A DNA stretch of 57,367 nucleotides, the filler included, from Dimargaris cristalligena (lineage: Eukaryota): assembly GCA_003614675.1 (NCBI GenBank). It is 2 parts of 2 records of this genome, joined end to end, with 100 filler letters (N's around TTAATTAATTAA, not from the genome) between each part and the next. Parts side by side here need not be neighbours in the genome. Positions count along the whole stretch, not along the records: positions 28,779 to 57,367 come from ML002499.1; 1 more part is not named here. One strand, written 5' to 3'. The number at the start of each line of letters is the position of its first letter. Position 1 is the first letter of the stretch. Under the pieces are notes generated by a model. The model did not search any database. It worked only from the letters and a program-made list of their open reading frames with translations, and was not told the DNA's origin. A program made the position numbers and the translations under genes. Below, piece by piece: positions 33,306-33,614 of this stretch.

Positions 33306-33614
33306 CTACTGCTGGCCGGCAGCTTTGGCGGCCTTTCGCTTATCACGCCACTGACGGTAACCCTTGACCAATTTGTTACCACCGTACAGACCGGCAACAC
33401 CACCAACGACGGTACCAACACCGGGGAGGAGGGCTGAGCCCGCAGCAGCACCGGCCAAACCGGCCCCAACCCTGGTCAGACCGGAGCGGAACCAGCGCTT
33501 CTGCAGATGGGGCTGGTGGCCGGCACTGTCTTCGGCAGTGGCGGGGTTAGCGTGAACCATGGACACGGTACCAATGGCGGCCAGGACAAGAGCGAGGGAG
33601 GGCAGAAGCTTCAT
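33306..33614 (-). CDS. Small secreted prepropeptide with Kex2-type KR site and cationic glycine-zipper mature part, 102 aa
   Basis: Signal MKLLPSLALVLAAIGTVSMVHA, pro-piece ending HLQKR, then GxxxG repeats. CCACCATG start context as in QCR8 and VPS21 here; pyrimidine-ending codon bias; TATAAATA upstream. Confidence 0.85.
   Translation of the reverse strand: MKLLPSLALVLAAIGTVSMVHANPATAEDSAGHQPHLQKRWFRSGLTRVGAGLAGAAAGSALLPGVGTVVGGVAGLYGGNKLVKGYRQWRDKRKAAKAAGQQ

Follow-up and report, generated by a model that had tools for sequence, protein, structure and literature searches.

Does the mycoparasitic fungus Dimargaris cristalligena release a small peptide, matured by the protease Kex2, that inserts into the membranes of other organisms? 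The question is raised by a 102-codon open reading frame (ORF) at positions 33306..33614 of a 57,367-nucleotide stretch of its genome (assembly GCA_003614675.1), referred to here as the window, which consists of two parts joined by filler letters; the part from position 28,779 onwards comes from record ML002499.1. An earlier note, made from the sequence alone, had described the ORF as the precursor of a cationic glycine-zipper (Gly-zipper) peptide and had proposed that the product is a bacteriocin-like fungal peptide, a candidate antimicrobial or membrane-active toxin. To our knowledge, haustorial mycoparasites of early-diverging fungi are molecularly almost unexplored, and we know of no ribosomal peptide toxin from them.

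D. cristalligena belongs to the Dimargaritales in the Kickxellomycotina and lives as a haustorial mycoparasite (PMC9866270), and the Zoopagomycota have been described as the phylum richest in Kex2-processed repeat proteins (PMC7329392). According to a preprint (10.1101/2020.05.27.120113), several fungal effectors lose a short, disordered pro-domain with LxxR or KR at its end to cleavage by Kex2, which has a preference for Leu at P4, Lys or Arg at P2, and Arg at P1. Candidalysin, a hydrophobic and membrane-damaging fungal peptide, is likewise made by Kex2/Kex1 processing (PMC5784256).

In order to understand what the ORF encodes, we compared the protein with its relatives, with bacterial Gly-zipper families, and with fungal proteins processed by Kex2. 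The strongest evidence concerns the precursor, which has a conserved pro-piece and a conserved Kex2-type junction in a family found in this species. We tentatively read its product as a secreted hairpin peptide that inserts into membranes, and put forward a toxin function as a hypothesis.

A small gene with seven relatives in one species

The ORF is borne out, and its translation is exactly the protein quoted in the earlier note, which had left the strand unstated: it lies on the minus strand, in a single exon that ends with a TAG stop at 33306-33308. The stop-to-stop frame (33306..33719) runs 35 codons beyond the ATG and holds no further in-frame ATG upstream. The GC content is 63% in the ORF versus 38-43% in its flanks, and an identical 102-amino-acid (aa) protein is present in the public D. 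cristalligena protein sets, that of a second strain included. Because conserved relatives exist in the same frame, five of them at lengths of 102-149 aa, sequence comparison identifies the ORF as a real gene rather than a chance ORF. An antisense ORF, 33138-33437 (+), was considered and rejected as coding, since every homolog fits the minus-strand frame. Neither a second copy of the gene (by tblastn) nor another ORF combining a signal peptide with LxKR at the pro position was found in the window.

Word-based and exhaustive protein searches recovered seven relatives, all from D. cristalligena. Three have the same length of 102 aa as the window protein, namely P0001 and P0002 (each 89% identical to it) and P0003 (72%), and two are longer, P0004 (137 aa, 58%) and P0005 (RKP35384.1; 149 aa, 52% by phmmer and 37% by BLASTP). 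The remaining two, P0009 (RKP33800.1; 213 aa, 55% over 39% of the query) and P0011 (133 aa, 55% over 37% of the query), both end inside the Gly-zipper core; each comes from a different assembly, and over their shared part the two hardly differ. Judged by sequence, P0009 and P0011 are probably one locus, so the family comprises about seven loci. The sequenced strain may be non-haploid (PMC9866270), in which case some pairs of relatives could be diverged haplotypes.

No relatives were found outside D. cristalligena, with the limit that other Dimargaritales have low-coverage genomes, in which small ORFs may have escaped annotation. When 8000 candidates were scored with a profile built from the eight family sequences, the 6 that matched were all D. 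cristalligena proteins. The exhaustive phmmer search gave 13 matches, of which those outside the species were weak or repeat-driven; a metagenome scan gave 48 pattern matches, none of them confirmed; and a search with residues 34-102 through 3503 candidates gave no longer or fused relatives at E up to 0.01. Candidates rejected as relatives include P0007, P0012, and P0015, whose similarity is driven by repeats or composition (an Arg-rich repeat, FG-GAP repeats, and Ig domains), P0010, P0013, and P0014, which contain generic Gly-zipper segments, and P0006, which has only a Gly-rich hinge in common with the family. P0006 itself, a 593-aa protein from a Logan/JGI source, consists of about ten tandem peptides of ~25 residues, in each of which Pro stands at the centre and Gly-Gly at the end; Q-Q-K-R or K-R, together with a spacer that is acidic or helical, lies between one peptide and the next. 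The protein resembles a polyprotein precursor of amphipathic antimicrobial-peptide-like peptides and has many Pfam matches, with no significant single stretch.

Members of the family are currently annotated as 'hypothetical', 'transmembrane' or 'glycine zipper domain-containing'. In the literature on secreted proteins of D. cristalligena, no paper on this family was found, by title and abstract, among the matches listed. The exhaustive and profile searches also gave no sign of homology to a conserved housekeeping membrane protein, a finding that the earlier note had named as one that would speak against a toxin. Restriction to one species, together with expansion there, fits an interaction factor.

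A conserved pro-piece and a Kex2-type junction

The precursor divides as the earlier note had described, into a predicted signal peptide (residues 1-22), a pro-piece (residues 23-40) ending in LQKR, and a mature part (residues 41-102). The signal peptide, called by eye, from hydropathy, and by the -3/-1 rule only, begins with MK, continues with a hydrophobic core of 15 residues, and has V-H-A at positions -3 to -1. Its Kyte-Doolittle maxima are 2.6 and 1.89 when averaged over 11 and 19 residues, respectively. Around the predicted signal peptidase site, M19, H21, A22, N23, and P24 are invariant among the five closest members. In the same five proteins, mean pairwise identity is highest in the pro-piece (0.81), followed by the signal peptide (0.75) and the hairpin (0.64-0.71), and lowest in the tail (0.58), with values of 0.58-0.72 for the mature parts overall. 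A pro-piece that is the most conserved segment is typical of families of prepropeptide toxins and antimicrobial peptides.

The junction between pro-piece and mature part reads P-H-L-Q-K-R. In the family alignment, none of the eight members departs from P35, L37, or K39, and R40 is present in all except P0003, which has His, so that the dibasic site is kept in seven of the eight. Three relatives, P0005, P0009, and P0011, have between the signal peptide and the Gly-zipper not one but three to five tandem modules of ~17 residues, some of them degenerate, which mostly end in P-x-L-(K/R)-(K/R)-R and contain 3, 4, and 3 dibasic clusters, respectively. When the dibasic clusters of this region are counted across all eight proteins, Leu occupies P4 in 14 of 14. 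LQKR itself fits the optimal Kex2 pattern given in the preprint (10.1101/2020.05.27.120113). Since the junction is conserved, Leu stands at P4 throughout, and the pro-piece is the best-conserved segment, the predicted cleavage after R40 is likely. The prepro architecture with a Kex2-type site that had been proposed is upheld at the level of sequence by these seven dibasic junctions, by the Leu residues at P4, and by the tandem pro-modules of the three paralogs. A second KR near the end, to which the earlier note had drawn attention, does exist at residues 92-93 but is found in the window protein and P0001 only, two of the six full-length members; since it is not conserved, a designed role in processing is unlikely and its presence probably incidental.

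A Gly/Ala-rich core followed by a basic tail

Cleavage after R40 would leave a peptide of 62 residues, for which the charge count made earlier, 10 Lys and Arg against one Asp, is correct, and which also contains 14 Gly and 11 Ala. The peptide can be divided into an uncharged core (residues 49-79) and a basic tail (residues 80-102). There are four GxxxG motifs, among them the run G67-G71-G75-G79, and G55, G59, P64, G67, V69, and G71 are invariant in all eight family members. At the sequence level, support for a Gly-zipper comes from this conservation and not from the motif count: of the GxxxG-rich segments that had been noticed around an L-P-G turn, the motifs and the conserved Gly and Pro residues stand, but their number does not exceed what composition predicts.

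AlphaFold2, run with the eight-sequence family alignment, gives a low-confidence model with a helix at residues 43-62, a break at L-P-G (residues 63-65), and a second helix at residues 66-100. Classical transmembrane segments exceed a Kyte-Doolittle threshold of 1.6 over 19 residues. The corresponding maximum of the core, 1.49, is lower than this threshold and also lower than that of the signal peptide (1.89).

Likeness to bacterial Gly-zipper proteins

The relationship to bacteriocins suggested by the earlier note did not hold up. In hidden Markov model searches against Gly-zipper and bacteriocin families, all matches stayed below the Pfam cut-offs. Bacteriocin_IIc (PF10439) reaches 18.0 bits (E = 0.0028) against a curated cut-off of 27.1; it matches five of the eight members at E up to 1, none of them above the cut-off. 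DUF456 also matches five of the eight members below its cut-off, Gly-zipper_Omp (PF13488) matches three (best E = 0.017, cut-off 25 bits), and Rick_17kDa_Anti (PF05433) scores 15.4 bits versus a cut-off of 24.2. Among the NCBIfam models only pdsO came up, at E = 0.081; solved structures gave a best E of 0.29 and nothing meaningful; and the ESM Atlas gave no usable match by features, the structural neighbours there being bacterial Gly-zipper or ComC-type clusters, all sub-threshold.

Individual bacterial proteins point the same way. The exhaustive phmmer search found none with an E better than 7e-5, and the best bacterial look-alike, P0013, has a non-significant composition-corrected BLASTP E of 9. 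What the bacterial matches have in common with the window protein is a segment of the 'LLPGVGTV-GG' type. One of these proteins, P0014, is a dynamin-like GTPase in which the Gly-zipper serves as a membrane anchor and scores 25.4 bits with Gly-zipper_Omp. Read directly, the window protein has no double-glycine leader, since no Gly-Gly stands at the junction and LQKR precedes the mature part. Because the family scores are sub-threshold, the composition-corrected E is non-significant, and a double-glycine leader is absent, the protein is not shown to belong to a bacterial family, and the likeness appears to be one of composition and hairpin type.

That likeness extends to the expected mode of action. 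The class II GxxxG bacteriocins (PF10439) and bacterial glycine-zipper toxins such as CdzC/CdzD, Tde1, and TelE likewise have Gly-zipper helices expected to insert into target membranes, and the class II bacteriocins are small cationic peptides whose leader is removed on export, as is predicted here. In contrast to these, the Dimargaris precursor has a eukaryotic Sec signal and a kexin site in place of a double-glycine leader and an ABC-transporter peptidase. The PF05433 and PF13488 domains are also hairpins of ~30-40 residues, with two short Gly-rich helices around a turn, but they are anchors inside larger bacterial proteins and not Kex2-released eukaryotic peptides.

Relation to Kex2-processed proteins of fungi

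On the sequence evidence, the protein is best read as a variant among the Kex2-processed secreted peptides of fungi. Secreted fungal proteins with a Kex2-processed pro-domain (K2PP proteins), for example SnTox3, ToxA, and the SIX effectors, have the same succession of a signal peptide and a short, disorder-prone pro-domain and the same Leu at P4 and Lys-Arg at P2-P1 of the junction, and in them, too, most of the secreted chain belongs to the mature part (preprint 10.1101/2020.05.27.120113). In agreement with the sequence criteria given there, the window protein, with its signal peptide assigned by hydropathy and the -3/-1 rule, has 18 residues leading up to LQKR and 62 of its 80 secreted residues after it. 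The mature domains differ: those of the K2PP proteins are folded, mostly cysteine-rich, and come from plant pathogens, whereas the Dimargaris peptide is predicted to be a cysteine-free Gly/Ala-rich hairpin of 62 residues from a mycoparasitic zygomycete.

The Candida albicans polyprotein Ece1 contains several peptides flanked by KR, and candidalysin, 31 residues long, is one of them. Like candidalysin, the Dimargaris peptide is predicted to be hydrophobic and helical, to have a basic C-terminus, and to be cut by Kex2 at Lys-Arg from a precursor in the secretory pathway. Unlike it, it is twice as long, forms a two-helix Gly-zipper hairpin in the model, and would be a single C-terminal product. 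No Ece1-type protein was among the 13 matches of the exhaustive search, and no direct comparison with Ece1 was made.

Some paralogs approach the Kex2-processed repeat proteins (KEPs; PMC7329392, PMC6339444, PMC9769878), as P0005, P0009, and P0011 likewise carry dibasic clusters in tandem modules. KEPs are defined by three or more repeats between dibasic sites; the window protein has a single module and therefore falls outside the definition. Table S2 of PMC7329392 contains 11 D. cristalligena KEPs, and neither RKP35384.1 nor RKP33800.1 is among them.

The nearest look-alike outside the species is P0008 from Pleurotus eryngii (KAF9490409.1, 389 aa), which is built of six tandem units, each with an acidic spacer, (H/Y)-L-E-A-R, and then a hydrophobic peptide of ~35 residues that is rich in Gly and Ala and has V-R-R at its end. 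In BLASTP, each unit aligns to residues 33-67 of the window protein, with E between 3e-5 and 0.016, and the two proteins are alike in the L-x-x-R junction and in an 'SGL-x-RVG' start. A profile-profile comparison with hhalign gave 18% probability over 23 columns. We regard P0008 as an analogue with a Kex2-processed-repeat layout, homology being unproven. Among the papers covered by a literature search, none combines 'glycine zipper' with 'Kex2'.

Upstream region and surroundings of the gene

The TATA box claimed in the earlier note is present (Table 1). Between it and the ATG lies a leader whose C+T content on the coding strand is 74% (measured over 33615-33805) and which ends in the start context CACC-ATG. 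Pyrimidine-rich leaders are common in strongly expressed genes of filamentous fungi. The codon bias that had been taken as a further sign of strong expression was found in part. Gly is encoded by GGT in 12 of 16 codons, versus 30 of 106 in three neighbouring genes for a subtilase, a kinase, and a Rieske protein (Fisher p = 4.8e-4), but the GC content at third codon positions, 0.65, shows no rise over the 0.63-0.75 of these neighbours. Codon usage thus gives mixed support for the predicted high expression.

The subtilase gene, at 22783-25437 (+), encodes a Peptidase_S8 domain (E = 9e-40) with an inserted PA domain and has a signal-like N-terminus from 22849. It was considered as the processing kexin and rejected, as it has the Peptidase_S8 and PA domains and no P-domain match. 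Subtilases are reported to be expanded in the Dimargaritales (PMC9866270). Remnants resembling a DIRS-type retroelement lie ~2 kb from the gene, at 27740-31289 (+), a region that contains N runs (28679-28722 and 28735-28778). They include RVT_1 at 28840-29265 (E = 6e-15), the sole match that passes its curated cut-off, and two weak matches below cut-off, to a Dam/PCIF1-like methyltransferase at 29737-30141 (E about 1e-3) and to a tyrosine recombinase (Phage_integrase) at 30618-31289 (E = 0.004). A (TA)n microsatellite is found at 33118-33140 (+), ~170 nt past the stop codon, in an AT-rich 3' flank (38% GC).

Table 1. Positions of the gene, its upstream elements, and the predicted parts of its product in the window.
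Feature	Position	Strand	Basis and remarks
TATAAATA box (TATA box)	33798-33805	-	191 nt upstream of the ATG; sequence reading and script
Pyrimidine-rich leader ending in CACC before the ATG	33615..33797	-	in frame with the ORF; coding in the fused model of another strain
Coding sequence, complete, single exon	33306..33614	-	ORF listing; 102-aa relatives at 72-89% identity
Predicted signal peptide, residues 1-22 (MK, hydrophobic core, VHA then NP)	33549..33614	-	hydropathy; -3/-1 residues
Pro-piece, residues 23-40 (NPATAEDSAGHQPHLQKR)	33495..33548	-	matches the module repeated in P0005, P0009, and P0011
Predicted Kex2 site L37-Q38-K39-R40, cleavage expected after R40	33495..33506	-	family alignment
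Predicted mature peptide, residues 41-102, 62 aa, net charge about +9	33309..33494	-	composition; AlphaFold2 model
Uncharged Gly/Ala-rich core, residues 49-79, predicted as two short helices around an L-P-G turn	33378..33470	-	conservation; hydropathy; sub-threshold Pfam matches
Basic C-terminal tail, residues 80-102, including the non-conserved KR 92-93	33309..33377	-	least conserved and best-modelled part

Discussion

As the best reading of these results we propose that the ORF encodes a secreted, Kex2-matured hairpin peptide that inserts into membranes, a proposal that is plausible while falling somewhat short of probable. The 22-residue signal peptide would take the precursor into the endoplasmic reticulum, and a late-Golgi kexin would cut after L-Q-K-R40 and free the 18-residue pro-piece, a step backed by conservation in the family. 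The 62-residue product may then adopt the helix-turn-helix hairpin of the low-confidence model, with its invariant Pro-Gly turn and its strongly basic helical tail. Once released from the cell, the peptide could bind to anionic membrane surfaces through the tail and the two N-terminal arginines, and the weakly hydrophobic hairpin could insert from one side, pack via its small-residue faces, and disturb or permeabilise the membrane of another organism. Candidates for the natural target would be the mucoralean host or competing microbes. Release is favoured over anchoring by the hydropathy of the core, which is below both the classical threshold and the signal peptide, by the layout of P0008, and by the precedent of candidalysin. 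The working principle would be closest to those of candidalysin and of the GxxxG two-peptide bacteriocins, kinship with either not being demonstrated. The proposal can be carried a step further, to D. cristalligena using a species-specific and recently expanded set of Gly-zipper hairpin peptides, ribosomally made and matured by Kex2, as weapons that attack membranes and are secreted where it meets its mucoralean host or against competing microbes; in this full form it is speculative, and we consider it unlikely.

Several observations weigh against a secreted membrane-active peptide. As many as 3907 of 10,000 shuffles of the 31-residue core reach its number of GxxxG motifs, which is thus no higher than composition predicts. 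The core helices are hydrophobic but not amphipathic, with hydrophobic moments of 0.03-0.19 (computed with the Eisenberg scale), so the product is not a classical amphipathic antimicrobial peptide, and insertion as a transmembrane segment or hairpin is favoured over a soluble amphipathic toxin. The AlphaFold2 model has a mean predicted local distance difference test score of only 55, with the tail modelled best at about 71-72. By sequence the pro-piece is approximately neutral, and it is not obvious how it would mask a cationic peptide. The K-H junction of P0003 should block a kexin. In P0004, Gly-Lys-Gly stands where the start Met would align, and the model, beginning 35 residues further upstream, would bury the signal peptide, which may mean a decaying copy or a mis-called start. 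Taken together, the altered junction of P0003 and the lost start of P0004 suggest decay, or another way of working, in some of the copies. Among the ORFs neighbouring the gene in the window, none looks like an immunity gene. Finally, a type I anchor with a cytosolic tail would likewise show an uncharged stretch of 31 residues and then a very basic tail, an alternative that the earlier note had not considered, and the automatic UniRef name of P0001 is 'Transmembrane protein'.

These last points lead to the most serious competitor of a released peptide, namely a small resident membrane protein of Dimargaris itself. Once the signal peptide is removed, the Gly/Ala-rich stretch would stay in the secretory, plasma or haustorial membrane of the producer as a single span or re-entrant hairpin, perhaps with a luminal stub trimmed by Kex2, and the tail, with its charge of +8 next to the uncharged core, would be cytosolic in accordance with the positive-inside rule. 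The lack of amphipathicity and the annotation of P0001 are in line with such a protein, as is the fact that similar bacterial Gly-zipper segments, such as that of P0014, are membrane anchors. However, the hydropathy of the core is under the classical transmembrane threshold, each helix has only ~14 uncharged residues, and the invariant Pro-Gly falls in the middle of the stretch. Kex2 modules that are conserved, and multiplied in paralogs, would moreover have no evident purpose on a luminal stub of 18 residues, and conservation in one species alone is unusual for a structural membrane component. We therefore judge a resident membrane protein to be a real contender that is nonetheless somewhat unlikely. 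The same modules could themselves be the functional part, if the pro-modules of ~15-18 residues ending in P-x-L-x-K-R were signalling peptides and the Gly-zipper a carrier or anchor at the Golgi. The strong conservation of the module, its three to five tandem copies (some degenerate) in P0005, P0009, and P0011, and the richness of the Zoopagomycota in Kex2-processed repeat proteins (PMC7329392) agree with this idea, which is made improbable by the single module of five of the eight members, the window protein included, by the retention of the Gly-zipper in all eight, and by the wide variation of the modules outside P-x-L-basic-basic.

Two further explanations concern the origin of the gene and its independence. 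Horizontal acquisition of a bacterial class IIc bacteriocin or Gly-zipper outer-membrane protein, later refitted with a eukaryotic signal and a Kex2 site, could account for the weak Pfam matches to Bacteriocin_IIc and Gly-zipper_Omp and for the bacterial structural neighbours in the ESM Atlas. With all Pfam matches below their curated cut-offs (18.0 versus 27.1 bits for Bacteriocin_IIc and 15.4 versus 24.2 for Rick_17kDa_Anti), those neighbours sub-threshold, P0013 non-significant after correction for composition, no bacterial protein better than E = 7e-5, and no double-glycine leader, such an origin is highly improbable. The ORF might also be an untranslated chance ORF or the last exon of the upstream gene for a CDK8-like kinase. 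The latter is what the model P0022 from another D. cristalligena strain implies, a 'cyclin-dependent protein kinase' of 507 aa that spans the kinase at 36041-37072 (-), the in-frame leader at 33615-33719 (-), and the identical 102 residues. Against it, stand-alone relatives of 102-149 aa at other loci start with the same Met-Lys signal peptide, the model P0021 of the same kinase ends without the 102 residues, the TATA box and pyrimidine-rich leader lie between kinase and ORF, and a nuclear kinase would have no use for an internal signal peptide. The fusion in P0022 is, on this sequence evidence, most likely an annotation artefact, and we give the possibility that the ORF is no gene of its own almost no weight. 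P0022 does indicate that the ORF and its position beside the kinase are conserved between strains.

Should the resident membrane protein turn out to be right, the family would be a lineage-specific curiosity of modest interest. If, as we tentatively propose, the peptide is secreted and membrane-active, it would be a concrete and synthesisable candidate effector of fungus-on-fungus parasitism, and its cysteine-free 62-residue Gly-zipper hairpin would offer a new antifungal or antibacterial scaffold. It would also represent a convergence of fungal Kex2-processed peptides and bacterial glycine-zipper bacteriocins. The six-unit protein P0008 is a hint that fungal Gly/Ala-rich membrane peptides released by Kex2 may form a broader class that has gone unrecognised. 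Were the peptides indeed used as weapons, they would be the first such peptide toxins from the Zoopagomycota and would parallel, as an independent eukaryotic invention, both candidalysin and the GxxxG bacteriocins of bacteria.

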